A stretch of 64,000 nt of DNA, taken from Trueperaceae bacterium (GTDB lineage: Bacteria; Deinococcota; Deinococci; Deinococcales; Trueperaceae). Positions 37,134 through 58,659 of this stretch are shown piece by piece. The DNA lies in NCBI GenBank assembly GCA_965215565.1, contig CBDCDZ010000004.1, positions 2,752,001-2,816,000 on the forward strand, given 5' to 3'. The stretch's first letter is position 1. Every line of letters begins with the position of its first letter. A model generated the notes under the pieces. That model was given only the letters and a program-made list of their open reading frames with translations, was not told the DNA's origin and ran no database searches. The position numbers and the translations under genes are program-made.

Positions 37134-38768
37134 ATGTTCCTGCCCACCTCTTTCCAACGCTACTTGCCGATCGTCAACCAGGTGTGGCGACTTTCCTTGC
37201 CCGTCATCCTGACCTTTTTATTGCAGAGCTTAGTCAACATCGTAGACGTCTTTATGGCGGGGCGGCTCGGTCCTGTTTCAGTGGCTGCGGTGGGCATGGC
37301 GACGACGTTGCGGATGCTCGTCTTCATCGGGATTTTGTCGGTGACTGCGGGCGCGATGGCGCTCGCGGCGCAGGCGAAAGGCTCTCGTGACCCCGCCCAA
37401 CTCTCTTTCGTCGCGAAGCAGTCGCTCTTACTCACCACAATTCTCGCGCTGACATTGAGCGTTCTCGGCTACGTCGCCGCCGAGCCGCTGCTGACCTTTT
37501 TGAACAGCGGCGGCAACCCCGAAGCGGTGGCGCTCGGGACGAGCTATCTACAAATCCTCTTCGTCGGCACGGTTTTTCTCACGGGCAACTTCGCCATCAA
37601 CAGCCTTATGCAAGGCGCGGGTGACACGGTGACGCCGCTTTACCTAAGCGGCGGTACGAACCTGTTCAACATTTTGCTCAGCTACGGGTTGATGTTCGGT
37701 CCTGGTCCGCTGCCTGCTTTTGGACTCGACGGGGCGGCGTTGGGGACGATTCTCGCGAGGATGTTAGCCGTGGGCGTCGGTCTCTACCTCTTGTATTCAG
37801 GTAAGAACGTCGTCAAGATTTTGCCGGGCTCGTACCTGCCTGACCTCTCGATGTTTAGAGACATCCTCGCTATCGGCATTCCGTCAGGATTGCAGGGCGT
37901 AGCGCGCAACGCGGCGCAGCTCTTCGTGATGCGCATCGTGACCTCGACCGCGGCGGGGACGTACGGCGCGGCGGCGCTAGCCATCGGCCTGCAAGTGGAG
38001 TCGTTCGCGTTTATGCCGGGCATCGCTTTGAGCGTCGCGGCGACGAGCCTGGTGGGGCAGTCTTTAGGCGCGTGGCAGCTTGGAGACGCAAGATTGAGGG
38101 GCAATCTGGCGCTCCTCCTCGGCGCGTTGGTCATGTCGGGAATGGCGGTGCCGCTCTTTTTGTTCGCGCCGCAACTCGTCGTGCTGTTCGAGCCGAGCGC
38201 GCATCCGACGGTAGTCTCGGCGGGCGCGTCGTACATCCGTATCAACGCGCTCTTCCAGCCTGTACTAGCAGTTGCGATGGTCATCAACGGCGCGTTACGC
38301 GGTGCAGGCGATACGCGCCCCGGTCTCGTCGGGACGATCATCGGACGGTGGCTCGTGGTTGTGCCGCTCGCTTACGTGCTCGCGATTGTGCTCGGGTTCG
38401 GCGTGCAGGGCGTGTGGTGGTCACTCGTCATCGGCACGTCGGTGCAGGCGCTTTACGTGCTCGTCCGGTGGCGCAGCCGCGTCTGGGTGGACGTGGCGCT
38501 CCACAAGACGAAGCTCTACCGTGACGTGTTGCAACCGCTCCCCGAAAAGGTGCAGTGGCGCTACCTGAACGAAGTGCGCACCCCCTTTATGGCGACGCCC
38601 GATGCGACGGAGCATGTGGACGCGGGCGGCGTGAGGTACGACTTGGGACACAAGACTGTCTACGTCCGCTTTTTCAAAGATGGCTACGAAGTTTTGGATA
38701 GAGAAGAAAATATCAAAGCTAGCGTGAAGGCTTATCCCAGGGTCCAAGTCGCCCCCGCTTACGATTAG
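37134..38768 (+). CDS. MATE family efflux transporter
   Basis: About 12 TM segments; VD..MAGRLG, GAGDT (twice) and LVGQSLGA motifs. Confidence 0.93.
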   Translation: MFLPTSFQRYLPIVNQVWRLSLPVILTFLLQSLVNIVDVFMAGRLGPVSVAAVGMATTLRMLVFIGILSVTAGAMALAAQAKGSRDPAQLSFVAKQSLLLTTILALTLSVLGYVAAEPLLTFLNSGGNPEAVALGTSYLQILFVGTVFLTGNFAINSLMQGAGDTVTPLYLSGGTNLFNILLSYGLMFGPGPLPAFGLDGAALGTILARMLAVGVGLYLLYSGKNVVKILPGSYLPDLSMFRDILAIGIPSGLQGVARNAAQLFVMRIVTSTAAGTYGAAALAIGLQVESFAFMPGIALSVAATSLVGQSLGAWQLGDARLRGNLALLLGALVMSGMAVPLFLFAPQLVVLFEPSAHPTVVSAGASYIRINALFQPVLAVAMVINGALRGAGDTRPGLVGTIIGRWLVVVPLAYVLAIVLGFGVQGVWWSLVIGTSVQALYVLVRWRSRVWVDVALHKTKLYRDVLQPLPEKVQWRYLNEVRTPFMATPDATEHVDAGGVRYDLGHKTVYVRFFKDGYEVLDREENIKASVKAYPRVQVAPAYD

Positions 38769-44069: not shown

Positions 44070-45365
44070 ATGAAGAAAGTTTTGTTAGCCCTTCTCTCGC
44101 TAGGTCTGCTTTTCGGCACGGCCCAAGCGCAAACCATCCGCGTGGCGGGTGGCTCGGTAGGTCAAGAGCTAGAACTCAGTCGTCAGCTCGCGCAGATGTA
44201 CATGGAGCAAAACCCGGACGTCACCGTAGAGATCATTCAGACGCCGGACTCCACCGACGACCGCTTTGCGCAGTACTTGCAGATTTTCGAAGCGCAGTCG
44301 CCCGACATTGACGTGATGCAGCTCGACATCATCTGGCCCGGTCAGCTTGCAGAACACCTCGTCAACCTCTACGACTACGAGGGCGTACAAGAAATCGCCG
44401 ACCAGCACTTCCCCGCTATTGTCGAGGCGAACACGGTAAACGATCAACTCGTCGCCATTCCTTGGTTTACAGACGCGGGCATCCTCTACTACCGCACGGA
44501 CCTCTTGGAGGAGTACGGCTTCGACGGTCCGCCCCAAACCTGGACCGAGTTAGAGGAGATGTCGAATACCATTCAAGAGGGCGAGCGCCAAGATAATCCC
44601 GACTTCAGCGCCTTTGTGTGGCAGGGCAATTCGTACGAGGGCCTCACCTGCGACGCTTTAGAGTGGGTCTACTCAGTCGGTGGCGGCAGCATCATCAGCC
44701 CCGACCAGGTTATCACCATCGATAACCCCGCTGCGGCAGACATTATTAGCCGCGCCTCCGAGTGGGTCGGCACCATCTCGCCAACAGGTGTCACCGGCTT
44801 CGCCGAGGAAGACGCGCGCAACTTCTTCCAGGCTGGCAACGCCGCCTTTATGCGCAACTGGCCCTACGCTTACAGCATTATGAACGCCGACGACAGCCCC
44901 ATCGCAGGTAACTTCGACGTGGCTACTTTACCCGCAGGTGAGAACGGTCAGTCTGCCGCGACCTTAGGCGGCTGGAACTTGGGCGTTTCGCGCTACAGCA
45001 CCAATGTTGAAGCCGCTGTAGACGTCGCCAAGTTCTTCACTTCAGAAGACGCGCAAAAGCTTCGTGCGATTGAGGGTTCGTTCAACCCCACAATTCCTAC
45101 GCTCTACGAAGACCAAGAGGTCTTAGAAGCCGTACCTTTCTTCGGTAGCCTCTTAGACGTCTTCACGAACGCCGTGGCGCGTCCTTCGGCTCCTACGGGC
45201 GACCAATACAACGAAGTCTCCCGCCAGTTCTTCACCGCTGTCCACAACGTTTTAACCGGCAACGAAGAGGCGGATGTGGCGTTGGAACTCCTCGCGCTCG
45301 ACCTGCAAGACCTGACAGGGTTTGAGACGGGCGATCCGCAGACTGAAACTAGCTCAGCGCAGTAA
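44070..45365 (+). CDS. Sugar ABC transporter substrate-binding protein (trehalose/maltose-like)
   Basis: Signal peptide; DIIWPG, PWFTDAG.LYYR.DLL, YEGLTCD, FMRNWPY and LGGW motifs. Confidence 0.92.
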   Translation: MKKVLLALLSLGLLFGTAQAQTIRVAGGSVGQELELSRQLAQMYMEQNPDVTVEIIQTPDSTDDRFAQYLQIFEAQSPDIDVMQLDIIWPGQLAEHLVNLYDYEGVQEIADQHFPAIVEANTVNDQLVAIPWFTDAGILYYRTDLLEEYGFDGPPQTWTELEEMSNTIQEGERQDNPDFSAFVWQGNSYEGLTCDALEWVYSVGGGSIISPDQVITIDNPAAADIISRASEWVGTISPTGVTGFAEEDARNFFQAGNAAFMRNWPYAYSIMNADDSPIAGNFDVATLPAGENGQSAATLGGWNLGVSRYSTNVEAAVDVAKFFTSEDAQKLRAIEGSFNPTIPTLYEDQEVLEAVPFFGSLLDVFTNAVARPSAPTGDQYNEVSRQFFTAVHNVLTGNEEADVALELLALDLQDLTGFETGDPQTETSSAQ

Positions 45366-45401
45366 AGGCGTATACAGCGTGGTGAATTAAACGCTTTTGA
45401 G

Positions 45402-45433
45402 AACCGAACTGAGTGCAACGCTCAGTTCGGTTT
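45402..45433 (+). terminator. Intercistronic stem-loop after the SBP gene
   Basis: aaccgaactgag / ctcagttcggtt stem. Confidence 0.7.
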
Positions 45434-45480
45434 GTTTTTAGAGATAAGATGAGCTTTATCTAAATCAAGGAGGTATTTTC

Positions 45481-46590
45481 GTGGCTGAACAAGTAACGGT
45501 TGTAAAGCAGCCTAAGTCCAAGGACGGAACTTCGGAGTTAGCCAAGCGTGAAGAGCGCACGGCGTTCTGGCTGCTCGTCCCGACCTTTATCGTGTTGCTT
45601 TTAATCGGCATTTATCCGCTAGGTCAGGTGTTCGTCTCGAGCTTCACCAATCAGCGCTTCGCCGCGGGGGATAGCGCCCAGGGCGAGTTCGTCGGGTTTC
45701 AGAATTACAGCGATCTGCTCTCCGTGACCTTTCGCCAAGTTCCCGCTGAGACAAACGATGCGGGCGAGGTTGTAACGGATGAAGACGGCAACACGGAATT
45801 TGTCAATGAGCGTATCTATCTGCGCCGCCTTGACACCAACCGCCGCTACGACGCAGTAGGCGCGTTCAACCTCTTCGGCAACCGCTACGTGCTGGGTGCC
45901 ACGAACGCCGCCTTTATCCGCGCGACGTGGGACACGATCGTGTTCACGGTAGGCTCAGTTTTCTTCGAGACGGTACTAGGGATGATCATTGCGCTCGCGC
46001 TGTCGGTAAAGTTTATCGGACAGGGCATCATGAGAGCGGCGATGCTCGTGCCTTGGGCGGTTATTACCGTCGTTTCGGCGCGCATCTGGGAATGGATGCT
46101 CCAGTCCACGCGGGCAGGCTTTTTCAACGCCTTCTTTCAAGATATGGGTTGGACAGAGCGCAACATCGGCTTTTTCCAGGACGCCACCTGGCAAATTCCC
46201 AGCATGATCGCGATGGATGTGTGGAAAACAACGCCTTTTATGGCGCTTCTGCTCTTGGCGGGTCTCGCCACTATCCCCAAAGAACTCTACGAAGCGGCTA
46301 AAGTGGACGGCGCAAGCCCGATTCGACAGTTTTTCTCCATTACACTGCCACTTGTAGCGCCGACGCTCGCCGTTGCGCTTATCTTCCGCACGCTAGACGC
46401 CCTCCGGGTCTTCGACGCCTTCCAGGTGGTGCTCGGGCGGCAGCGCTACTCGATGGCGAGTTACGCTCAGGATGTGCTTATCAATCAGCAGCAAGTCGGG
46501 CTTTCGTCGGCGGCGAGCGTGGTGATCTTCGTTATCATCTTCGGGTTTGCCATTGCCTACACCCGCGCGTTTGGAGTTGAAGACTCATGA
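45481..46590 (+). CDS. Carbohydrate ABC transporter permease (MalF-like)
   Basis: WKTTPF..LLLLAGL and EAAKVDGA motifs. Confidence 0.95.
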   Translation: MAEQVTVVKQPKSKDGTSELAKREERTAFWLLVPTFIVLLLIGIYPLGQVFVSSFTNQRFAAGDSAQGEFVGFQNYSDLLSVTFRQVPAETNDAGEVVTDEDGNTEFVNERIYLRRLDTNRRYDAVGAFNLFGNRYVLGATNAAFIRATWDTIVFTVGSVFFETVLGMIIALALSVKFIGQGIMRAAMLVPWAVITVVSARIWEWMLQSTRAGFFNAFFQDMGWTERNIGFFQDATWQIPSMIAMDVWKTTPFMALLLLAGLATIPKELYEAAKVDGASPIRQFFSITLPLVAPTLAVALIFRTLDALRVFDAFQVVLGRQRYSMASYAQDVLINQQQVGLSSAASVVIFVIIFGFAIAYTRAFGVEDS

Positions 46591-47432
46591 GTAAGGAAAC
46601 CCGCAAAGTCATCGGTAGCATCTTTTTCTGGCTGCTCATCTTGATCATCTTCGTCTACCTGATGTTCCCCTTCTATTGGGCTACGATTTCGGCTCTAAAA
46701 CCGGAGAGCGAACTGATTCGCACCCCTACGACGTACTACCCACACAACCCGACCTTGCAAAACTTTCAGGCGGTCTTACAGAGTGGCGACTTTTTACGTG
46801 GGCTCCTCAACAGCACGATTGTCGCCTTCTCCGTTACCGTTCTAAGTCTTCTTGTCGGCTCCTTTGCGGGCTACGCTTTGGGCAAGATGCGCTTTCGCGG
46901 TAAGTCGCCCTCCTTGTACATCATCTTGGCGATGACCATGTTTCCGCAGATCGCGGTATTAGCGGGGCTTTACGCGGTGATTCGCCTCCTTTCGCTGCCA
47001 CCAATTTTCAGTATGATCTTGTCTTATATGCTCTTTACGCTGCCCTTCACGGTCTGGGTTTTGACCTCGTTCTTTAGGGGGCTACCTGACTCGCTCCTGC
47101 AAGCGGCGCAGGTCGACGGGGCGAATATGATGCAGACCTTCTGGCGCGTGCTCTTGCCGCTGACGGCTCCTGCGCTCGTCACGACGGGGCTCTTAGCCTT
47201 TATCCAGGCGTGGAACGAGTACCTCTTTGCACTGACGTTCACGGTGACGTCGCCCGAGTCACGAACGGTGCCCGTCGCCATCGCACTCTTTTCAGGGGAG
47301 GTCTCGCGTCAGGAGCCCTTCGGTGAGATCATGGCAGCGGCGGTGATCGTAACCATTCCGCTCGTCGCCTTGGTGCTCATCTTCCAGGGACGCATCGTGG
47401 ATGGGCTTACGGCGGGGGCGGTTAAAGGCTGA
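46587..47432 (+). CDS. Carbohydrate ABC transporter permease (MalG-like)
   Basis: AAQVDGA, AWNEYLFA and GLTAGAVKG motifs. Confidence 0.95.
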   Translation: MSKETRKVIGSIFFWLLILIIFVYLMFPFYWATISALKPESELIRTPTTYYPHNPTLQNFQAVLQSGDFLRGLLNSTIVAFSVTVLSLLVGSFAGYALGKMRFRGKSPSLYIILAMTMFPQIAVLAGLYAVIRLLSLPPIFSMILSYMLFTLPFTVWVLTSFFRGLPDSLLQAAQVDGANMMQTFWRVLLPLTAPALVTTGLLAFIQAWNEYLFALTFTVTSPESRTVPVAIALFSGEVSRQEPFGEIMAAAVIVTIPLVALVLIFQGRIVDGLTAGAVKG

Positions 47433-47463
47433 GCATCTGCTTGCTCGAGTCTAAACAGTTTAG

Positions 47464-47495
47464 AAAAGGAGAGGTGCGTCACCTCTCCTTTTTTT
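47464..47495 (+). terminator. Rho-independent terminator
   Basis: aaaaggagaggtg / cacctctcctttt stem with T-run. Confidence 0.85.
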
Positions 47496-47508
47496 GGTAC
47501 AAAAAGGG

Positions 47509-49140
47509 ATGTCTCATTCAACCTATCACCGCTGGTGGCAGACCGGCATCATCTACCAAATCTACCCGCGCTCCTTTCAAGACAGCAATGACGACGGCGT
47601 CGGCGACTTGAAGGGCATTCAGAAGAGGTTGGACTACCTTCAGTCTTTGGGCGTCGACGCCATCTGGCTCTCGCCCATCTATCCTTCGCCCATGTACGAT
47701 TTTGGCTACGATGTGGCGGACTACGTGGGCATCCACCCGCTTTTCGGCACGATGGAGGACTTCGACGCGCTCTTGGGCGAGGTGCATGAGCGCGGGCTCA
47801 AGCTGATCTTAGACCTGGTTCCGAACCACACCTCGACCGAACACGCTTGGTTTCAGGAGTCGCGGCAAAGTCGGGATAACGCTCGGTCCGACTGGTACAT
47901 CTGGCGCGACGCGGCTCCCGGCGGCGGACCCCCTAACAACTGGTTATCTTGCTTCGGCGGGCCCGCTTGGACCTTCGATGAGGCGAGAGGACAGTACTAC
48001 CTCCACAGCTTCGAAACCAGGCAGCCCGACCTCAACTACCACAACCCCGAGGTGGAGAGCGCCCTCTTCGAGACGATGCAGTTCTGGCTCGGTAAGGGTG
48101 TGGACGGCTTTCGGGTGGACGTCATCGAGTTCATGCTGCAAGACCCGCATCTGCGCGATGAGCCCGAAAACAAGATATGGGACGGCGTCGAGCCTTACGG
48201 TAAGCTCAACCACATCTATTCGCGCAACCAACCCGAAGTGCACACGCTCATCAAAAAAATGCGGCGCGTGGTGGACAGCTATAGCGCGCCGGGGCGGGAG
48301 CGCGTGCTGATCGGCGAGATGTTCATCTTCGACGAGACGCTGATGGCGTACTACGGTCTTGCCGACGAATGTCACCTCCCCTTCAACTTCAACTTCATCT
48401 ATAACGACTGGAGCGCGCCCACTGCGCGCCGCATTGTAGAGCGCTACGAGGCGTATCTGCCGCCCGGCGCGTGGCCCAACTACGTGCTGGGCAACCACGA
48501 TCAGCACCGCGTGGCGACGCGAATCGGGTGCGAGCAGGCGAGGGTGGCGCAAACTCTGCTGCTCACGCTGCACGGCACGCCCTTCGTCTACTACGGCGAA
48601 GAGATCGGGATGCACGACGTGGACATCCCCGCTGACAAGGTCAAAGACCCGCCCGCCGTAAATCAGCCCGAAGTGGCGCACCTCTTGGGGCGCGACCCCG
48701 AGCGCACGCCGATGCAGTGGGACGCTTCGCCGAACGCGGGCTTTACGGGCGAAGAGGTGGAGCCGTGGCTGCCGCTCGCGGATGACTTTGTGGAGAACAA
48801 CGTTCAAGCGCAGGCGGATGATGACACGTCGATGCTCTCGCTTTTTAAGAAGTTGACCCAACTTCGAAAGCGTGAACCTGCCCTTAGCATCGGCAGTTAC
48901 GAAGAGGTCGCAGTAGGTGAAGCGGACGGTGACGTGTTTGCCTACCTGCGCTCTGCAAAGGATGCCGATAGCTTTTTAGTGGTGCTGAATCTGAGCGGCA
49001 ACGCGCATACGCTCGAGCTACCCCACTTTCCCCCAAAAGCTGAGATTGCCGTCTCGAGCCACATGACCCGCGCCAAAGAGATTAATTTAAGCAACTTAGA
49101 GCTTGCCGCCCATGAAGGGTTGGTTGTGCGCCTGCGGTAG
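47509..49140 (+). CDS. GH13 alpha-glucosidase / oligo-1,6-glucosidase
   Basis: YQIYPRSF.D.N.DG.GD, DLVPNH, QPDLN, GFRVD, IGE and NHD motifs. Confidence 0.95.
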   Translation: MSHSTYHRWWQTGIIYQIYPRSFQDSNDDGVGDLKGIQKRLDYLQSLGVDAIWLSPIYPSPMYDFGYDVADYVGIHPLFGTMEDFDALLGEVHERGLKLILDLVPNHTSTEHAWFQESRQSRDNARSDWYIWRDAAPGGGPPNNWLSCFGGPAWTFDEARGQYYLHSFETRQPDLNYHNPEVESALFETMQFWLGKGVDGFRVDVIEFMLQDPHLRDEPENKIWDGVEPYGKLNHIYSRNQPEVHTLIKKMRRVVDSYSAPGRERVLIGEMFIFDETLMAYYGLADECHLPFNFNFIYNDWSAPTARRIVERYEAYLPPGAWPNYVLGNHDQHRVATRIGCEQARVAQTLLLTLHGTPFVYYGEEIGMHDVDIPADKVKDPPAVNQPEVAHLLGRDPERTPMQWDASPNAGFTGEEVEPWLPLADDFVENNVQAQADDDTSMLSLFKKLTQLRKREPALSIGSYEEVAVGEADGDVFAYLRSAKDADSFLVVLNLSGNAHTLELPHFPPKAEIAVSSHMTRAKEINLSNLELAAHEGLVVRLR

Positions 49141-49195
49141 ACGTAAAAAGGACTCGAGGATTGACTCGAGCCCTTCTCTTTTAGCGGTAAGAGAT

Positions 49196-50863
49196 TTAAG
49201 ACGGACCCGCGATGCGCCAGAAGGTATTGGGGTTATCAATATCTGCGCTGACACTGCCCTTACCGTGGAAGTAGTCGTCGTAGTTAGCGTATCTGCTGTT
49301 CGAAACTGGACCCATCACTGCCCATATAACGGAGCTTGGTTGCACCTCTGTTGCAGTTGCCACCCACGCTTGGCGTACCTTCTGGGGCTTTTTGTCTGGG
49401 AACCAACTTATTTTCTTGCCCAACATCTTTTCAGCCAACAGACGCCCTTCGGTTTGATTGTCGAAGCTAACGTTAGCGTAGGCGAGCATCTGGTGGAGTC
49501 CCTTGAACGCGGGCCCCCAACGTTGCGCGAAATTCTTGCCGCCGGAGGTGTGTTGGAGGGGTCCGCAAGCTGCCACGACGAGCCACTCTAAGTCGCGGTT
49601 GCCCCATTTTGCGTCGTTGTAGTGCAAGAAGCCGTCGTCGTTAGTGCCTTCAAAGGTAAAGCCGTCGCCGTCTGCGTGACCCGTGTAGAAGACCATGTCC
49701 ACATCGTCTACATAGGCGTTGTCGGCACCTCCCTTACTTGGGTCTTTGAAATCGCGTTCCCAAGCGGCAGCGTCGCCAAAGTGAAACTGGACCGGGATGC
49801 CCGCGCCGCTCATCGTGTCGCGGAAGCCGCCTGCGTTGTTCTGGGAGCCGCCGAGTCCTTGCGATACGCCGATATATTCGACGCCAACATCCACACGTCC
49901 TAAGCGCTGGGTGCTGAGTGTTGGCGCTTGGCTGACCTCTCTACTATCGGCTGATTGTGCCGCTAACTCAGACTCGCCACGCGTCTCGCCTGTGCTGGCG
50001 TCGAGCATGACCGCCCTAAGTTGCGCGCCGTTTTTGAGCGTATAGTCTTCGCAGACGTAAGAGGGGGTGAGTTCTTCGCCGCTTTGGTCGGGTGAATCCA
50101 CATAGTAGGTGAGTTTCGGTGTACCTGGCAGCACGCCTTCGTTACTTGCATACGCCTCTTCACAAGCTTGCGCCGCTTCACTTGCGGACAAAACAGAGGT
50201 TTCACCGATGGGCTCGAGCCCATAAAGTCCGTAGTAAAGCTGCGTGACCTGACCTTCGGGGTTAAAAACCGCTTTGACCTTGCCGCCGGGTCCGCTCAGC
50301 GAAACGCCGCCTGCTTGCTCCAACCTCAGGTTAAAAAGCACATGCGTATCTACTTCGGTGTCAACGAGCGTTTTGCCTCCGGTGGTCTCTAAACTGAAGG
50401 TGCTTACGTCTGTATAAGGTTCTGCGTTTAAGCCCTCAACGATGGATTCGGGCAGCATCTCCGCGCTGTCTAACGCGCCGAGCACACGCTCCACTGCTTC
50501 GCCTGCATCAAAGGGTTTCACCTCTTGTAGCGCCTCAAAGTCAAACGCTTCAGTGACTACGCTGCCGCCATCTTCTGCGGACTCTTCCTGACCAACAACC
50601 TTGCTCGGCACCGCCATAAAGTTCTCTGTGTCAAGGTAGCTGATTGGCGCAAAGGGATCGGGTTCACCAATGTCTGCTTTGATGCCGAGTTCGTTCATAA
50701 GATGCTGAACTTGCTCGCTCTTGACGCCGTTCTCAGTGAGGCGAAAGACGGGGAGTTGCTCTAAGTCTTGCGTCGAGACTTCGCTCGGGGTTTGATTCAT
50801 GTCGGTGCAAGCCGCTAAGAGCAGGAAAGAGGTTGAGATTAAGCCGATATGTTTGCATTTCAT
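49196..50863 (-). CDS. Lipoprotein with C-terminal DUF6345-like (putative clan CD cysteine protease) domain
   Basis: AAGGAG RBS; lipobox LLAAC; WERDF, DMVFYTGHA and WG..DLEWLVVAAC motifs. Confidence 0.75.
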   Translation of the reverse strand: MKCKHIGLISTSFLLLAACTDMNQTPSEVSTQDLEQLPVFRLTENGVKSEQVQHLMNELGIKADIGEPDPFAPISYLDTENFMAVPSKVVGQEESAEDGGSVVTEAFDFEALQEVKPFDAGEAVERVLGALDSAEMLPESIVEGLNAEPYTDVSTFSLETTGGKTLVDTEVDTHVLFNLRLEQAGGVSLSGPGGKVKAVFNPEGQVTQLYYGLYGLEPIGETSVLSASEAAQACEEAYASNEGVLPGTPKLTYYVDSPDQSGEELTPSYVCEDYTLKNGAQLRAVMLDASTGETRGESELAAQSADSREVSQAPTLSTQRLGRVDVGVEYIGVSQGLGGSQNNAGGFRDTMSGAGIPVQFHFGDAAAWERDFKDPSKGGADNAYVDDVDMVFYTGHADGDGFTFEGTNDDGFLHYNDAKWGNRDLEWLVVAACGPLQHTSGGKNFAQRWGPAFKGLHQMLAYANVSFDNQTEGRLLAEKMLGKKISWFPDKKPQKVRQAWVATATEVQPSSVIWAVMGPVSNSRYANYDDYFHGKGSVSADIDNPNTFWRIAGPS

Positions 50864-50968
50864 GGTCGTTCTCCTTGAATATTTGCGAGAGTTTTGGACG
50901 GGTGCCCACCTCGAGGCGTAGTAGAGGTGACGCAGTGGGCACATTCGGATATAAAGAGATTTTAGAGA

Positions 50969-51982
50969 TTAGTTGACAGGGATGGGAGTGGGACGAGCGT
51001 CAACGGGAACGGGGGTGGGTCTCGCCCTAAAGAAGACGGGCTGAGGGTCTTCGCTAAGGGTGCCGTGCTTTAACGCACCCTCGATATGCTCATTCATCAC
51101 TTCGTCTAAGAGGTCAGCGTGGACGGGTAAGACGCCAGCGTGCTCGAAGAGGGAAACCTGTACCTCTTCGCTAAAGAGAGATTCGGCGAGCATGGTGCCC
51201 ATCTCTTCACCAACTTTGGTATGAACGGCAACGTTAAGCCCTTGGATAACCGGCGCAACGCCTTCGCCTTGAAGCTGGGTGAGGTTGCCGAGACCCGCTT
51301 CTACTCTGTTGAGACCTGCGTTACCAGTGAAGATAACATCGACTTCGTGGAGATGCTGGATGGCTATATAGCGGTCAATATTCTCTTTTGCTCGCTGTAA
51401 GTGATAGCCCATGCAAGACCTGGAAGCAAAGCAGATAGGACTAACTGAAATGGTTGTTCCTTGACATCCTGCGGGATCACACGTCACTGAGCCTATTCGA
51501 ATGCTCGTATCGACTTCAAAAACTTCCGTAAATACATTGCCCAACTCCTGCTGACTCAACTCGCTCACTTCCTGTAGTGCTAAGTCGTAGCTCATAAGTG
51601 TTTCCGCAAACTCAGGTGTGATGTACGCGCCTTCAAAGTCCCAACCGACGACAGGGGAGAAGTCAACGGGGTCACACCAGCGCGGGTCGCACCAAGGGAT
51701 GGGCCAAGGGCGCGGGTTCCAGGGCCAAGGGTCAATCTCCGGGGGTAGCGGCGTGTAGGAAACTAAACCACCTCCCACTTCGTTATGAACTTCCAAGAGA
51801 TTATCCGGCTCGGTCAGGATAGTCTCGAAGCCCGCTGCACCTAGTCCTTCGGCAATCTGCTCGTTATCCGTGACGATGGGAACGTCTGAAAAACCGGCGG
51901 TGCTGAGTTCCGTCTCTGTGAGGTCGGTGCCGCACGCGCTCAAGAGGGCGATGAGACAGCCAATAAAAATGGTGCGTTTCAT
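50969..51982 (-). CDS. Lipoprotein with Pro/Trp-rich segment and SBP-like C-terminal half
   Basis: AAGGAG RBS; lipobox LLSAC. Confidence 0.75.
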   Translation of the reverse strand: MKRTIFIGCLIALLSACGTDLTETELSTAGFSDVPIVTDNEQIAEGLGAAGFETILTEPDNLLEVHNEVGGGLVSYTPLPPEIDPWPWNPRPWPIPWCDPRWCDPVDFSPVVGWDFEGAYITPEFAETLMSYDLALQEVSELSQQELGNVFTEVFEVDTSIRIGSVTCDPAGCQGTTISVSPICFASRSCMGYHLQRAKENIDRYIAIQHLHEVDVIFTGNAGLNRVEAGLGNLTQLQGEGVAPVIQGLNVAVHTKVGEEMGTMLAESLFSEEVQVSLFEHAGVLPVHADLLDEVMNEHIEGALKHGTLSEDPQPVFFRARPTPVPVDARPTPIPVN

Positions 51983-52120
51983 GGGGTTGCTCCTTTGTCA
52001 AAGCTGAGTGTGTTTCGGGTGTAGGGCTGACGGGTCTGTTTAGTAGGCGTACGCTGGGCTGTTCACCTCACCCCTCCTCTCTTTCGTCCTGGTCGTTTGC
52101 TTGATTAGAACGATGAAAGG

Positions 52121-52152
52121 ATGGTAGGCTGAGCGCGTCAACTTTTCGTCAA
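52121..52152 (-). promoter_or_regulatory. Putative SARP-activated promoter
   Basis: Minus strand reads TTGACGA-N4-TTGACGC-N8-TACCAT(-10). Confidence 0.6.
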
Positions 52153-52337
52153 AAAACTCGAGAAAGCGTGTCCTAAACAAATAAAAACACCATGAATTTG
52201 TTTTCTTGCCTCTACGTCGGCGTACCCTTTCGAACGTTTGAGGACGGTTTGGGGGGTTCGTTGGGTCGCTTGCCCCTTCCTAAAGCCGCGCCTCACCTCT
52301 TCCGGTCAGGCTCTGGTCATGGCTGGTCAGGCACACT

Positions 52338-54947
52338 ATGGACGTGCTTAATCTCACTCTTTTAGGAACGCCGCGCCTGACCTACAAAGGCGCAGACGTA
52401 GGGCTACAAAAAAAGAACTTGGCGCTCGTGTGTTATTTGGCGCTGCAAGGAACGTGTACCCGCGCGGACCTCACCGAACTGCTTTGGGGTGCGGGGCGCG
52501 GCGGCAGTTTGCGCACGGCGCTCTACAAGGTGCGGCAGTTGCCGGGCGCAGAAGACTGGCTCACGGACGGGGAACTCGTCAAGCTAGCCGTGCAGAGCGA
52601 TGTGGCAATGTTGCAGCGCGACAAGGACGCCCCCAATCTCTCCGAAGCGACGTTTGCCCACCTGGATAGTTACTTAGAAAATGACGCGCAAGGGCTTTTG
52701 TTCGGTTTCAAAGCGCCGACGCCCGCCTACAGCGAATGGTTAGAAGAGCAGCGCCAAGCGGTTGCGCTCTTGCTCGAGACCCTCCTCAGACGCGCTGCCC
52801 AAGAGGTATTTGAACGCGGCGAACTGGAGCGGGCAAAGCGCTACGCCGAAGCCCTCATCACCCGCGACCCCTTAGACGAGCCTGCGTATAGGCTGCTGAT
52901 GCGGCTCGAGTTGGGGCGCGGCTATCCCGAAAACACACACCGCACTTTTGGGCGTTTAGTCTCAACACTCGAAGAGGTCGGCGGCGAACCCGACCCGGAT
53001 ACACTCGCGCTGCACCGTCAACTGTTGGGCACGGGGAGCGGCGCACAGGGCGCACGCCTGCACGAAGGAGACGACGTGCCAGGGCGTGCCCCGCGGCTTA
53101 TCGGGCGCGACTCTCTGTTACAAAGTCTCGAGGCAAACCTCACCGGACACCGCTCTGAGCGCCCGGTGTTGCTGCACGGTTTAGGCGGCGTCGGTAAAAC
53201 GGCCTTAGCCGCGGAGTTGGCGTTCAGGTTCCTCCCCAAAGATGAAGTGCTCTGGCTCCAAGCCGGTCTCAGCAGCGCCGCCGAACTCCTCGGCGCAACT
53301 CGTGGGCTATTGGGACTCTCAGGCGCGGCGCAACCCAGTGCGCTAACCCAAGCACTCGGGCGCGTTTCCCTCGTCATTGTTGACGACGTTTGGAACGAGG
53401 GCGCGGTGGCAGCGTTGCGTCACCATCTACCCGAGACTTGTCCGCTGGTCGTAACCTCGAGGCAGCGCATGAGCGGCTTTAAGCGACTCGACGTGAGGCG
53501 GCTCGTGAGAGAGGATGCGCGGCAACTTTTGCGGCTCGAGGCGGGCACTGACCTCTGTAACGCGCAGCTAGAGCCCATCTGTGACCTCTTGGGCGACCAT
53601 CCCTTCGCCCTGCGTGTGGCAGGTGCGAAGCTCAAGCACGACGGGCTCACGCCGCTGCAACTCCTCACGCAGCTCGCCAGCGCGCCCCACACGCTCAGAG
53701 TCCAGGGAAGCAGGGGCGACGCGAACAGCGTCAGCGCCCTCTTGCAAACGAGCTTAGATACCCTCAGTGACGATGCCTATGACGCCTTTTTAGCGGTGGG
53801 CGCACTCGCGTCTAGCACGGTGAGTGCGCCGCTCCTAGCCCGCGCCTTACGCCGCGACGAAGAGGTTGCCGAAGCCGCGCTTATCGAACTGCAAACCCGC
53901 GCCTTAGCCACCCGCACTGCTAGCCCCGGCAGTGACCTCGTGCGCTACACGCTCCACGACCTCTCACACAGCTTTGCGCGGCAAAAAACCACCTTACGCC
54001 CGCAGAGCGTTCTTCGTGCCTGTAGCGATTTGGTACACGCGCATCCTAAAGACTTCGACATTTTAGACGCTGAAATCACCAACGTCATCGGGGCGCTCAG
54101 CCCCTTGCAAGACGCGCAAGAGGTGAAAGGGCAACGTTCGGTGCTTTCGGTCATGGCGAAACTCGTCATCGGTGACGCCTACTTTGCAGCGAGAGGTCAC
54201 ACGCCGCGTTCCTTGAAGCTTTTGGAGGTGGCAGCGAAGTGGGCGGAGGCGCTTGAAGAACTCGTGTGGGCGCATCATTTTGTGACGAAGCTCGGGGACG
54301 CTTACCGCGTGCAATATCACCAGTTTGAAAGGGCGCTCACCTCTTATCAAACGGGGGCGAAGTTGGCGCAGCTAACTGGGGATAAGGCGAGAGAGGCCAT
54401 ATTGACGAGTCTCTGCGGTATTGCTCAGCATCATTTGGCGCGTTCACCTAATGAGACATTTGAGCGAGCCTATCAACTTGCTCGAGAGGCAGATAACCTT
54501 ACGGCTATTGGTCAAGTGCTACAGCATCGCGGTTTTGTTGCTGGGTTCTACGATAACTGGAAGCTAGTGGAAAGCTTGAACATAGAAGCGGGCAGAGTTG
54601 CACGCTCGTTCTCAAATACAACGGATGAAGAACGCACCCGTGCTGACGACCTTCTTTACTTTTCACTTCTCAACTTGGGCGAAGCCAAACGTAAGCTTGG
54701 AAATTTTGAAGAAGCTGTAACCATCCGAAAAGAGGCTTTGGACATTGCAGTTACGCACAAGAATCAAATGTGGCAAGCCTACGCATTGCACGAACTTGGT
54801 GAGATGTACCTCGAGGTGCCTGAGTACGAGACAGCCGAGGGGTACTTGCGAAAGGCTCTCAAGCTTTACAAAACTAATCACGCCGCCGCCGAAGTTACAG
54901 AGGTGCAACAGCTTATTGACAAAAATTCACGCCGAGTTGACGCCTAG
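52338..54947 (+). CDS. AfsR-like STAND regulator: SARP wHTH, BTAD, NB-ARC, TPR
   Basis: LLG.P.L, LALVCYLAL, DPLDE.AYR.LM, GLGGVGKT, VDDVW, VTSR, HPFAL, LHDL and C-terminal TPRs. Confidence 0.92.
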   Translation: MDVLNLTLLGTPRLTYKGADVGLQKKNLALVCYLALQGTCTRADLTELLWGAGRGGSLRTALYKVRQLPGAEDWLTDGELVKLAVQSDVAMLQRDKDAPNLSEATFAHLDSYLENDAQGLLFGFKAPTPAYSEWLEEQRQAVALLLETLLRRAAQEVFERGELERAKRYAEALITRDPLDEPAYRLLMRLELGRGYPENTHRTFGRLVSTLEEVGGEPDPDTLALHRQLLGTGSGAQGARLHEGDDVPGRAPRLIGRDSLLQSLEANLTGHRSERPVLLHGLGGVGKTALAAELAFRFLPKDEVLWLQAGLSSAAELLGATRGLLGLSGAAQPSALTQALGRVSLVIVDDVWNEGAVAALRHHLPETCPLVVTSRQRMSGFKRLDVRRLVREDARQLLRLEAGTDLCNAQLEPICDLLGDHPFALRVAGAKLKHDGLTPLQLLTQLASAPHTLRVQGSRGDANSVSALLQTSLDTLSDDAYDAFLAVGALASSTVSAPLLARALRRDEEVAEAALIELQTRALATRTASPGSDLVRYTLHDLSHSFARQKTTLRPQSVLRACSDLVHAHPKDFDILDAEITNVIGALSPLQDAQEVKGQRSVLSVMAKLVIGDAYFAARGHTPRSLKLLEVAAKWAEALEELVWAHHFVTKLGDAYRVQYHQFERALTSYQTGAKLAQLTGDKAREAILTSLCGIAQHHLARSPNETFERAYQLAREADNLTAIGQVLQHRGFVAGFYDNWKLVESLNIEAGRVARSFSNTTDEERTRADDLLYFSLLNLGEAKRKLGNFEEAVTIRKEALDIAVTHKNQMWQAYALHELGEMYLEVPEYETAEGYLRKALKLYKTNHAAAEVTEVQQLIDKNSRRVDA

Positions 54948-54976
54948 CTCGTATTGTTACTTGTGGAGGAAAACAG

Positions 54977-56377
54977 ATGAAATACATTGCAAGCAGCCTT
55001 CTTTTGACCCTCTTTTTAAGTGCATGTTCGATTAGCGATCCTTCCAACCTCGAGCAGCAGGCTTTCGAAACTATCGACCCAAGCAATCTCATCGGTTTAA
55101 GCGGCGAAGAATTCAGACTCATAAACGAAGATACGGGCAACTGTTCGATTGATGAGATCAAAATACCGGGAGAAGGATTGCGCGCTATGGGTGGTAGTGG
55201 CGGTCTCTTCACCCAACCCTTCTCTATCAGCACCGTACCCGATGACATCAACATCATCAGCCAAGAGGTTCTCAACTTAGCGTCACCCCACTTCGACCAG
55301 CCCACCGCGCTTCTTGTTGTAGATGACTTTGATGGGCAAGGGCTTAATCAACCTGGCGTTTACTTTCCCGATATTAGAGGTCAAGGTCCCCACGGGTCAC
55401 TTGTTTACAACCATACTTTGGCACTTCTCGCAAAAATCGACCAAAGCATGGGAAAAAATCCAAAGTTGAAGCTAAGCCCGGCTGTAAAGATGGACAGCTT
55501 TGAGATACACAAGCCTGCGCGTATCGATCTATTTAATGAGCCTCCTTTCAACTTCGAGCCGTTCTCAGGGCATGTTACGCAGTTTCCCAACCTCAACCTT
55601 ACCGTTATTGCTATTGATACCGAAGATTTCGATACGAGCATCATCGCCGGCCGCATCGCCGCGACGATTCAACGTGCGGCGGACCATTGGAATATCTCGC
55701 GCTTCGCTGCCAATATGAGCTTTGGACTGGTGCCGTGCAGCGTACTCGAGGATTTCACGGCAGTGAAGCAAATGTATCCAACGTTTGAATCTTACCGAGA
55801 TGCGCTTCTCGCTAAGAATAAGCTCAGCGTGACTCAGTTTCATAAAGAACTCACAGAAATCCTCACGACACCTGTAGGTAACGACCCGCTGCAACTCCTC
55901 GCGCAGTTCAATCCAGAAGCGATCTCTGGAAATGTTGACGCCGTGGCATACCTCGCCTCAGCGGGCAACTACGGTATGAACTACTCGCTCTTTCCCGCCC
56001 ACTGGCCCGAATTTGCGAGCGTGAGCGCCTCAGACCTGAGCGTGGACCCAAGCAGACCGCTCGAGATTTCGCATAAAGACGCCGCGTATTCAAATTCGGG
56101 TGAAATCCTCTTGCCGGGTGGCTACTACCAGCTTAACCTCTACTACCCTGGTGGCGGCTGGCAGCCCATCCCTGACATTGCTTTCGCAGGCACCTCATTC
56201 GCTGCACCTGTTTTGAGCGTCTTCACCGCGTTGGACTTTACGAGCAGAGCGCCGCAGTGCCCCGTTACACACGAGCACAGCACGTCGCTCGCACACAACT
56301 ATAGGTACGGTTTAGGACAAGATGAGATGTTGGAGAACGTCATCAACGGGTCGTGCGCTCGTCACTATCGTCCCTGA
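54977..56377 (+). CDS. S8 subtilisin-like serine protease, lipoprotein
   Basis: GGAGG RBS; lipobox FLSAC; VVDD, HGSLV, SAGN and GTSFAAP motifs. Confidence 0.85.
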   Translation: MKYIASSLLLTLFLSACSISDPSNLEQQAFETIDPSNLIGLSGEEFRLINEDTGNCSIDEIKIPGEGLRAMGGSGGLFTQPFSISTVPDDINIISQEVLNLASPHFDQPTALLVVDDFDGQGLNQPGVYFPDIRGQGPHGSLVYNHTLALLAKIDQSMGKNPKLKLSPAVKMDSFEIHKPARIDLFNEPPFNFEPFSGHVTQFPNLNLTVIAIDTEDFDTSIIAGRIAATIQRAADHWNISRFAANMSFGLVPCSVLEDFTAVKQMYPTFESYRDALLAKNKLSVTQFHKELTEILTTPVGNDPLQLLAQFNPEAISGNVDAVAYLASAGNYGMNYSLFPAHWPEFASVSASDLSVDPSRPLEISHKDAAYSNSGEILLPGGYYQLNLYYPGGGWQPIPDIAFAGTSFAAPVLSVFTALDFTSRAPQCPVTHEHSTSLAHNYRYGLGQDEMLENVINGSCARHYRP

Positions 56378-56487
56378 GAGGTGAAGCGGGTCAGCATAAG
56401 ATTTGTTCCGATAGACTGACCTGCTCATTCACTTTCTCGTACGTTCTTCTACAATTGAAAGCAATATCAATGCGGAAGGAGGAAACC

Positions 56488-56586
56488 ATGAAGCAGAAAC
56501 TTCGTCACATCTTTGTGCTGGCGCTCATCACCTTACCGTTCTGGAGTAGCGTAGCATTTGCTGGATTGCGCGTTAGGGGCGGCTAA
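56488..56586 (+). CDS. 32-aa secreted peptide precursor (signal peptide + GLRVRGG)
   Basis: AAGGAGG RBS; MKQKLRHIFVLALITLPFWSSVAFA-GLRVRGG; downstream terminator. Confidence 0.8.
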   Translation: MKQKLRHIFVLALITLPFWSSVAFAGLRVRGG

Positions 56587-56610
56587 TCTCCAAAACTTTC
56601 TATGCCTACG

Positions 56611-56640
56611 AAGAGAGGTGAAGCTTTCACCTCTCTTTTT
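56611..56640 (+). terminator. Rho-independent terminator
   Basis: aagagaggtgaa-gct-ttcacctctctt plus T-run. Confidence 0.9.

Positions 56641-56727: not shown

Positions 56728-58659
<1,932 letters not shown>

Follow-up and report, generated by a model that had tools for sequence, protein, structure and literature searches.

Can the inducer of an AfsR-type STAND regulator be a peptide that is encoded beside it? This question was raised by a stretch of 64,000 nucleotides from a Trueperaceae bacterium (GenBank assembly GCA_965215565.1, contig CBDCDZ010000004.1, positions 2,752,001 to 2,816,000 of the forward strand), here called the window, in which the gene for a large regulator with tetratricopeptide repeats (TPRs) is followed by the gene for a subtilisin-like (S8) lipoprotein and by a small open reading frame (ORF) of 32 aa. 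A sequence-only reading of this region had proposed a peptide quorum-sensing circuit with RRNPP-like logic, in which the small ORF would supply a heptapeptide to the regulator and the S8 protease would mature or quench it. On comparison with related loci, the conserved core was the regulator together with the S8 gene, not the small ORF, and a heptapeptide unit was found inside the S8 protein itself. The reading that we prefer, with a probability of about 0.6, is that S8 gives off a heptapeptide which switches the STAND receptor as a signal from cell to cell or, at the least, after being imported.

The regulator-subtilase pair and its embedded unit

The S8 protein was confirmed as a lipoprotein encoded beside the regulator. 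Its Pfam match was weak (E 0.0085; 15.9 bits against a cut-off of 21.8 bits), which points to a divergent subfamily, and AlphaFold2 modelling with Foldseek comparison gave a subtilisin fold in which D116, H139, N331 (the oxyanion Asn) and S407 are conserved. The family motifs were retained in 158-174 of 176 full-length relatives, with a lipobox-like motif present in 113 of the 176. Overlooked by the sequence-only reading was a seven-residue unit (GLRAMGG), bordered on its N-terminal side by a conserved Cys-x(7)-Pro-Gly-Glu/Gln and on the other by x-Gly-Gly; the idea that S8 matures the signal gained comparative support, but the conserved precursor of that signal would be S8 itself. Among 34 close S8 relatives the flanking glycines were near-invariant and unit positions 2 and 5 highly variable, and in the closest relative (P0004, 77% BLAST identity) unit positions 2, 4 and 5 were changed, the nearest other changes lying at residues 57 and 77. 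Exact tandem repeats of period 7 were found in 64 of 185 S8 proteins, at the unit site in 61, with any other period occurring in at most four proteins. Units could be parsed in 140 of the 185 (one copy in 81, two in 36, three in 18, four in 4 and five in 1), and the last units of these 140 proteins were of 113 different kinds, positions 6 and 7 being dictated by the pattern used for parsing.

Both borders of the unit read hydrophobic-x-Gly-x across the S8 family, in agreement with the P4 and P2 preferences of subtilisins, and S8 may therefore cleave itself at both unit ends. Region 54-75 of the AlphaFold2 model had pLDDT below 50 with the unit segment unresolved, so the model cannot place the unit in the active site.

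The regulator had been read as a SARP-BTAD/NB-ARC/TPR protein, and this was borne out by Pfam matches to BTAD (residues 132-230), AAA_16/NB-ARC (253-348) and, above cut-off, TPR_12 (777-845), which is the domain order of large SARPs (BTAD, NOD, TPR), and by intact Walker A (GLGGVGKT) and Walker B motifs. No Pfam match to an OmpR-type winged-helix domain was obtained at E 0.1; by analogy with AfsR-type architecture, a winged-helix DNA-binding domain would be expected within the first ~100 residues. The TPR profile matched AfsR at E 4e-10, RapH and RapI weakly, and TPR proteins in the PDB, and the NB-ARC part matched the NCBIfam model FxSxx_TPR below its cut-off (93 of 300 bits). The G+C content at third codon positions (GC3) of the regulator gene fell from ~0.7 upstream to 0.47 across residues 701-869, as if the TPR part had been exchanged.

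Pairing of the two genes was counted after duplicate loci (L081, L083, L085, L125) and S8 matches below 100 bits had been removed. Among the 128 S8 genes that remained, 57 had a regulator-type STAND-TPR gene directly upstream, 1 had such a gene divergent and 27 had a cyclase-type STAND-TPR gene; 19 were without a receptor in at least 1.5 kb of view and 24 were uninformative. A STAND-TPR gene was thus adjacent in 85 of 104 informative loci, 16 of these having been fetched via the regulator, and in 20 further loci picked by S8 alone the receptor was present in 18, with 2 ending at a contig edge. Conversely, the 22 loci reached through the regulator (the window, L001 and L034-L053) had S8 directly downstream in 15, divergent in 1 and not adjacent in 6. 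The proposed scan of regulator homologs for neighbouring S8 genes therefore succeeded in 16 of 22 loci, but receptors with other outputs had been missed: besides BTAD, the partner proteins carried class III cyclase (L116, L154), Ser/Thr kinase (L080, L156) or DUF4062 (L071, L087) output domains. L087 is an Anaerolineaceae record, and the S8 family was found in Chloroflexota records. Within the phylum of the window it occurred in 82 of 364 genomes. By family, it was present in 68 of 127 other genomes of the window's own, while a second had it in 12 of 125 genomes and a third in 1 of 68. An unpublished genome (G035) entered the analysis through tallies only. At 50% identity, 318 clusters matched S8 at E <1e-30; a metagenome scan with a single S8 as query gave no match.

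Several relatives of these genes departed from the usual arrangement. A paralogous regulator with 51% identity (L001:7038-9848; G000:C4:1631037-1633847) is without a partner S8 and keeps Glu852; under the SARP box of that locus lies a 56-aa ORF lacking a Sec leader, with the end VPRARTG, unit-like at positions 3-5 and scoring -1.5 bits. This paralogue could be an orphan receptor or the user of a variant precursor. The closest regulator of the same genus (L035:8103-10736, genome G001) is interrupted in its last TPRs by a stop and by what looks like a disturbed reading frame, and is apparently a pseudogene or an assembly error. In a long-form S8 subfamily (L055-L064, L096-L109 and similar) the protein has gained a further N-terminal domain, and its unit, present in 2-4 copies, hardly varies. 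Of the copy types in this subfamily, one lies behind a cyclase-STAND-TPR gene; another has no adjacent receptor and may share that of the first. Units of the second family (L213-L223) have Ala or Ser first, Trp at position 2 and no Gly6, and all their receptors have Gln782. In a divergent clade (L225, L226, L230) the Gly-flanked repeats are longer and S8 is immediately followed by a second TPR gene, and in L037 and L162 the S8 unit is degenerate or missing, the boxed genes there including a PAP2/haloperoxidase-like gene.

Free-standing precursors and SARP-type boxes

The small ORF itself was present as first described, with a basic and hydrophobic leader ending in A-F-A, then GLRVRGG and a stop, followed by a terminator. 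Against a profile of 121 distinct S8 units, among them that of the S8 in the window but not the small ORF, its tail scored 13.5 bits, the median of real units, and only 1 of 58,327 small-ORF ends in the genome, that of this same ORF, reached this value; the next-best of 569 candidates with a ribosome site and a hydrophobic stretch scored 4.9 bits. The match is more than chance and, judged on it, the 32-aa ORF is a free-standing copy of the S8-internal unit. The region was identical in two contig runs of one sample, which are possibly the source data. Scans for promoters and terminators were by themselves at chance level (3 promoters against 2.9 expected; 8 terminators against 9.5).

A micropeptide gene had been predicted beside homologous regulators in general, and this did not hold. 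Clear free-standing precursors were found in 4 of 140 loci scanned (the window, L036, L086 and L093), none was found in 20 further loci and none was added by a profile search of 128 family genomes; in most loci the heptapeptide lies in S8 instead. When the four precursors served as the search profile, another 18 matches appeared at E 0.004-0.05, most of them lying within long frames. A scan confined to the same strand downstream of S8 found no such ORFs in other loci, having missed the precursors because these lie upstream, between genes or on the other strand: that of L036 is between genes on the opposite strand, that of L086 upstream of the regulator and that of L093 between genes on the same strand. 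All three have AGGAGG, a leader ending in A-x-A, a unit right after the leader and a second unit at the stop, and terminator-like hairpins follow two of them. The basic, hydrophobic leader with A-x-A was common to all 4 precursors, Sec export being judged by pattern here as for the S8 leaders. Placement of the unit after a signal-peptidase site and/or at the stop indicates that it exists apart from the protease. In a 4x4 comparison the best match of each free unit was the S8 unit from the same locus (the diagonal), with tail fractions among 138 units of 0.088, 0.073, 0.022 and 0.058 (combined p ~0.003).

Other candidates were rejected, in L037 as antisense inside a long ORF with a weak ribosome site, and in L048, L076, L082 and L096 as neither after a leader cleavage site nor at a stop. 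A type I toxin reading of the small ORF was likewise set aside, since its leader ends in a peptidase site and is followed by the family unit. A small lipoprotein 1.5 kb after the L104 S8 gene (L104:8775-8948) ends in HASGG, the S8 of that locus repeating RASGG twice, and is a possible fifth precursor. In L129 (6624-6737) a 37-aa ORF with a leader lies between regulator and S8, on the opposite strand as in L036, and has a unit-like segment after the leader.

SARP targets are described in the accessible text of PMC10936776 as direct repeats with an 11-bp period, the last of which stops 8 bp short of the -10 element. The boxes of this family have the same geometry (direct repeats of consensus TT[CGA]ACGC at an 11-bp period, 8 nt before a TAnnnT hexamer), as has the divergent-operon element of the window with its two 7-bp repeats, and they are predicted SARP targets. 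With a matrix trained on 13 other loci, the window excluded, the S8 promoter ranked first in the chromosome, the site after the paralogous regulator second (20.8 bits) and the divergent promoter third. The best shuffled score was 21.5, so that the second and third sites rest on position and conservation, the divergent-promoter site being weak by score alone; equivalent divergent sites were found in L034, L035, L036, L041, L044, L093 and L162. The SARP-type element reported on the divergent operon was thus conserved, but the strongest box, that before S8, had escaped notice. A box preceded S8 in 19 of 128 loci, namely in 13 of 37 full BTAD-type loci and in 6 that were split, partial or receptor-less, and in 0 of 24 cyclase-type loci. 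The overlap of this box with the 3' end of the regulator gene explains why the final residues of the protein (window 54922-54947) are kept in several loci. From the boxes before S8 and the divergent genes, the regulator is likely to drive its own precursor-protease together with the divergent genes. No matrix site was found before any of the four free-standing precursors, which suggests that the small ORF stands outside the feedback loop and is probably a basal peptide supply. In L093 (366-12345) seven SARP boxes occur within 13 kb, before many lipoprotein genes, forming a larger local regulon; in the window, weak box-like sites at 37188 (-, 15.7 bits) and 38788 (+, 16.4 bits) are inside the shuffled range.

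Possible correspondence of TPR and unit, and the readings weighed

Co-variation between TPR and peptide was analysed in 32 of 81 receptor-unit pairs, those with a regulator score below 300, a unit score below 10 or a truncated N-terminal part being left out. TPR residue 852 was acidic with 13 of the 14 units that have Arg at position 3 and with 0 of the 18 others, a charge-complementary rule which held in 31 of the 32 loci, with 5 changes on the NB-ARC tree. The best S8 column followed unit residue 3 in 27 of 32 and the best N-terminal column in 28. The split at TPR residue 736 held in 30 of 32, tied with an NB-ARC column and hence weak, and Gln782 occurred only with non-Gly first unit residues. 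Both window peptides carry Arg3, matching Glu852. Some of the free units of L036 and L086, by contrast, carry Arg3 although residue 852 of the receptor is Arg, as might be expected of an antagonist or of a ligand for a different receptor. Among close pairs, L043 and L132 have the same unit with 94% identity in NB-ARC and 97% in TPR. L042 and L110 have different units with 93% in NB-ARC, 91% in the S8 core and 54% in TPR, and L054, L084 and L086, again with different units, have 87-89% in NB-ARC and 75-77% in TPR. Taken together, the close pairs and the co-variation are suggestive of a TPR that reads the unit. Prediction of a complex of the TPR region with the 32-aa precursor (score 0.02, mark 0.32) was used neither for nor against this.

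The co-variation that the sequence-only reading had proposed to test was less clear outside the set in which it was found, and this is the first of several results that weigh against the reading we prefer. The 852 rule held in 24 of 35 held-out loci (one-sided p 0.09), with acidic residues at 6 of 11 Arg3 units and at 6 of 24 non-Arg units (18 of 24 conforming); the first held-out set alone gave 14 of 18 (p 0.03). These counts leave out 7 Chloroflexota-type rows with ambiguous units, L120 (truncated), L162 (without a unit), orphans and the cyclase-type L231. Within a 20-row clade the best-column permutation gave p 0.06, and a partial Mantel test of unit against TPR distance, with NB-ARC and S8 held, was negative (r 0.07, p 0.16), unit distance still correlating with the S8 core (r 0.16, p 0.003). 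The close-pair contrast consists of one same-unit pair and four different-unit pairs, and L114 and L123 share a unit, yet have a TPR identity of 56% at an NB-ARC identity of 69%. No receptor was adjacent in 19 of 104 informative S8 loci, no S8 in 6 of 22 regulator loci, and of the 37 full BTAD-type loci no more than 13 showed the box. The cyclase-type S8 subfamily retains nearly one unit and is thus not diversifying, and the proposed cleavage sites depend on general subtilisin preferences.

The course of events that we propose begins with S8, which, as its sequence shows, is exported as a lipoprotein with the unit in a flexible N-terminal segment; it would cut itself at both unit borders and so would free one heptapeptide per copy. 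An oligopeptide ABC transporter would take up the peptide; six family-5 (peptide-type) solute-binding proteins are encoded in the genome, such genes being present in 11 of 14 control genomes. Inside the cell the peptide would bind the groove formed by the C-terminal TPRs of the STAND protein encoded next door, as the co-variation hints, and lift its auto-inhibition, upon which the SARP domain would activate the S8 gene, in a positive feedback, and the divergent lipoprotein operon, as the conserved boxes suggest. The 32-aa ORF would be an accessory precursor needing signal peptidase only, its peptide probably providing a basal supply that primes the loop or, less likely, opposing it, and other members of the family would couple the same input to cyclase, kinase or DUF4062 outputs.

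It may be instead that the unit is only an autoprocessing site of S8 or the tail of an inhibitory propeptide, that the free-standing peptide is secreted to inhibit or tune the protease and that the TPR senses something else. The unit does sit ahead of the catalytic domain, as propeptides do, its last four residues fit the subtilase P4-P1 pattern, and in the partial Mantel test it tracked the S8 core better than the TPR. However, a cleavage site would hardly account for up to five exact tandem copies or for 113 variants, no S8 column follows unit residue 3 as well as TPR residue 852 does, and where the S8 core holds at 91% the unit changes and the TPR falls to 54%. The gene for a cytoplasmic STAND-TPR protein, moreover, stays beside S8 across outputs and two phyla, and we regard this explanation as unlikely.

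Improbable too, in our judgement, is a relay across the envelope of a single cell, in which a tethered S8 would respond to an outside cue and release the peptide into the periplasm for import by its own cell only, with no sensing of density. The lipobox-like motif of the 113 S8 relatives would tether the precursor, Deinococcota possess an outer membrane and most loci have no separately secreted precursor. Signalling between cells is favoured over such a relay by the diversity of units among close relatives together with the fast change of the TPR, which resemble private channels between strains, by the free-standing precursors with cleavable leaders at four different positions relative to the regulator-S8 pair, and by feedback on the precursor gene, which is typical of quorum loops.

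A module for biological conflict, with the peptide as an alarm or a mark of self and non-self and the STAND protein as a defence effector, would suit the NLR-like scaffold, the kinase and DUF4062 outputs and a caspase-fold target, and for an analogous coupling, that of actinobacterial peptide-processing systems with AP-ATPase-TPR proteins, the accessible text of Kaur et al. 2020 (PMC7159879) proposes that the peptide is a toxin or a signal. The commonest outputs are, however, a transcription activator and a class III cyclase, the boxed genes are mostly for secreted lipoproteins and hydrolases, the caspase-like protein has a lipoprotein leader, and inspection of the loci, which did not extend to a PADLOC search, showed no genes of ternary systems; we therefore think this very unlikely. 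Sequence relatives of the 32-aa ORF were detected in three other loci only, but that it arose by chance or by decay and has nothing to do with the pair can practically be dismissed, given its rank as best of all small-ORF ends in the genome, the locus-matched units, and three independent loci with the same precursor design, strong ribosome sites and, in two, terminator-like hairpins.

Output genes, flanks and relation to known systems

Table 1. Features of the regulator-S8 locus, in window coordinates.
Feature	Position	Strand	Remarks
Terminator-like hairpin separating the divergent operon from the convergent glucosidase-like gene	49153..49170	.	A-run before, T-rich after; consensus scan only
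Lipoprotein, 555 aa, DUF6345 C-terminal domain (output gene 2)	49196..50863	-	predicted secreted cysteine peptidase
Lipoprotein, 337 aa, Trp/Pro/Cys-rich insert (output gene 1)	50969..51982	-	no family match
SARP-type promoter of divergent operon	52121..52152	-	repeats 52152-52135, 8-nt gap, -10-like TACCAT 52126-52121; matrix 20.7 bits
STAND regulator, 869 aa, proposed peptide receptor	52338..54947	+	SARP (BTAD) - NB-ARC - TPR by Pfam
TPR Gly736, candidate contact	54543..54545	+	size inverse to unit residue 2; second-best covarying pair
TPR Glu852, candidate contact	54891..54893	+	acidic with Arg at unit residue 3; top covarying pair
SARP-type promoter of S8, overlapping regulator gene end	54926..54957	+	repeats 54926-54943, -10-like 54952-54957; matrix 28.8 bits
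S8 (subtilisin-fold) lipoprotein, 466 aa, proposed self-processing propeptide	54977..56377	+	triad D116/H139/S407
Embedded heptapeptide unit GLRAMGG, S8 residues 67-73	55175..55195	+	variable positions, near-invariant flanks
Sigma70-like promoter of small ORF, without SARP box	56428..56455	+	consensus scan, chance-level
Free-standing precursor, 32 aa: Sec-type leader and GLRVRGG (56563-56583)	56488..56586	+	AGGAGG Shine-Dalgarno
Intrinsic terminator, shared with convergent acyl-CoA ligase gene	56610..56638	+	13-pair stem and T run; consensus scan

The two divergent lipoprotein genes were present as the sequence-only reading had them. In the second, the open frame reaches 50944 and the start was set by the lipobox. 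Its product matched DUF6345 in Pfam at E 1e-74, with a His396/Cys433 dyad of which His and Cys were invariant in 18 of 18 aligned domains. The AlphaFold2 model of this domain (pLDDT 93) gave SAVED-CHAT proteins and caspases as the top Foldseek matches (E 1e-5 to 1e-4, TM ~0.47), from which a secreted cysteine peptidase with a clan CD caspase/CHAT fold is predicted; no description of DUF6345 was found in openly licensed literature. The 337-aa lipoprotein had no match in Pfam, NCBIfam, Atlas or PDB, and its reading as a solute-binding protein was unsupported (MalE1 at E 1.3); relatives are divergent from the regulator in L034 and at the paralogous locus of L001. Boxed or divergent genes elsewhere encode a trypsin-like lipoprotein (L035), a DUF6345 protein and a beta-propeller lipoprotein (L036), a trypsin-FG-GAP protein (L043), PAP2-like and amidase proteins (L162) and a canonical S8 (L001), and their theme is secreted hydrolases. 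The flanks of the locus are ordinary, with a sugar ABC transporter and the glucosidase-like gene (44070-49140) on one side and an acyl-CoA ligase (56728-58659) and a cytochrome P450 (61685-62944) on the other. Their GC3 is 0.77-0.78 as against 0.58-0.62 for the secreted genes of the module, which suggests that the module was acquired. A gene of the beta-lactamase family (serine hydrolase) lies 3' of the module at L001:9954-11081 and downstream of the L034 S8 gene.

Intracellular peptide quorum sensing has been described mainly from RRNPP systems of Bacillota, with a receptor signature of 250-500 aa and no ATPase domain (accessible text of PMC10075063), and RRNPP propeptides carry 1-4 tandem pheromone copies (accessible text of PMC11343458); the words Deinococcus and Chloroflexi are absent from the accessible text of PMC10075063 and PMC9765709. 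The module resembles the RRNPP(A) systems (Rap-Phr, PlcR-PapR, NprR-NprX, AimR-AimP, PrgX, Rgg/ComR) in its Sec-exported precursor, its peptide of 5-10 residues, the tandem copies, an intracellular receptor with C-terminal TPRs and a likely import of the Opp type. Unlike them, it has a STAND ATPase of 869 aa, outside the signature, as receptor, a protease of 420-900 aa carrying its own unit as the usual precursor, Deinococcota and Chloroflexota instead of Bacillota as hosts, and swappable outputs. The four small ORFs fit the RRNPP propeptide size of 10-100 aa, but in most loci the only unit lies inside S8; receptor and propeptide are adjacent in L036, L086 and L093, or if S8 is taken as the propeptide, the window's small ORF being separated by S8. 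On this comparison the module would work like RRNPP systems but is not a member of them, its receptor being too long and an ATPase, and a small propeptide usually missing. RRNPP-like logic on an AfsR scaffold, as first proposed, is therefore retained, with S8 in place of the micropeptide gene as the usual precursor. Enterococcal PrgX, with its peptides cCF10 and iCF10, is similar in that a heptapeptide embedded in a lipoprotein and a heptapeptide from a small ORF address one TPR receptor; unlike the S8 unit, cCF10 comes from a signal sequence via another protease, and PrgX has no ATPase.

AfsR and other large SARPs (SARP-NOD-TPR) share the domain order and the geometry of promoter repeats, and differ from the present locus, where a gene-encoded candidate ligand and its protease adjoin the receptor. 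In the accessible text of a 2024 structural paper (PMC10936776), inducer binding to the AfsR TPR is stated to be unknown, and MalT and GutR are given as STAND regulators switched by ligand and ATP; what induces these two is a sugar or a sugar alcohol and not a peptide of the cell's own making. Actinobacterial zincin/FxSxx peptide systems coupled to AP-ATPase-TPR proteins (Kaur et al. 2020, PMC7159879, accessible text) are the nearest precedent for a peptide with a STAND-TPR protein. These systems (FxSxx-COOH, RxD, acidic) likewise hold a peptidase, a short peptide and a STAND-TPR protein in one locus. They are unlike the present one in having a zincin, a separate small precursor, often radical-SAM modified, and ties to ternary conflict systems, whereas here a secreted S8 contains the peptide and no modifying enzyme was seen; neither a zincin, an FxSxx, RxD or acidic precursor nor a radical SAM enzyme was among the ORFs of the region. 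No description of an S8-heptapeptide/STAND system was found in openly licensed literature, and the regulator-S8 module is real, widespread and apparently undescribed.

More tentatively, and with somewhat less than even confidence, the module may represent a widespread and undescribed class of cell-to-cell signalling. A secreted subtilase would here serve at once as the source and as the maturase of a heptapeptide pheromone specific to the strain, NLR-like STAND-TPR proteins with interchangeable outputs would sense it inside the cell, and micro-precursors would prime or antagonise the loop. If true, this would provide the TPR sensor of an AfsR-type protein with a peptide ligand, and the code that links peptides to receptors could be read. 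The locus family offers ligand-receptor pairs for STAND-TPR proteins: more than 100 natural unit variants together with the receptors that go with them, pairs that are nearly identical except in TPR and unit, and one residue predicted to make contact. It makes testable how a self-made peptide switches a bacterial NLR-like protein. DUF6345 would gain a caspase-like fold assignment from the model, and orthogonal peptide-inducible switches with a choice of outputs could follow.

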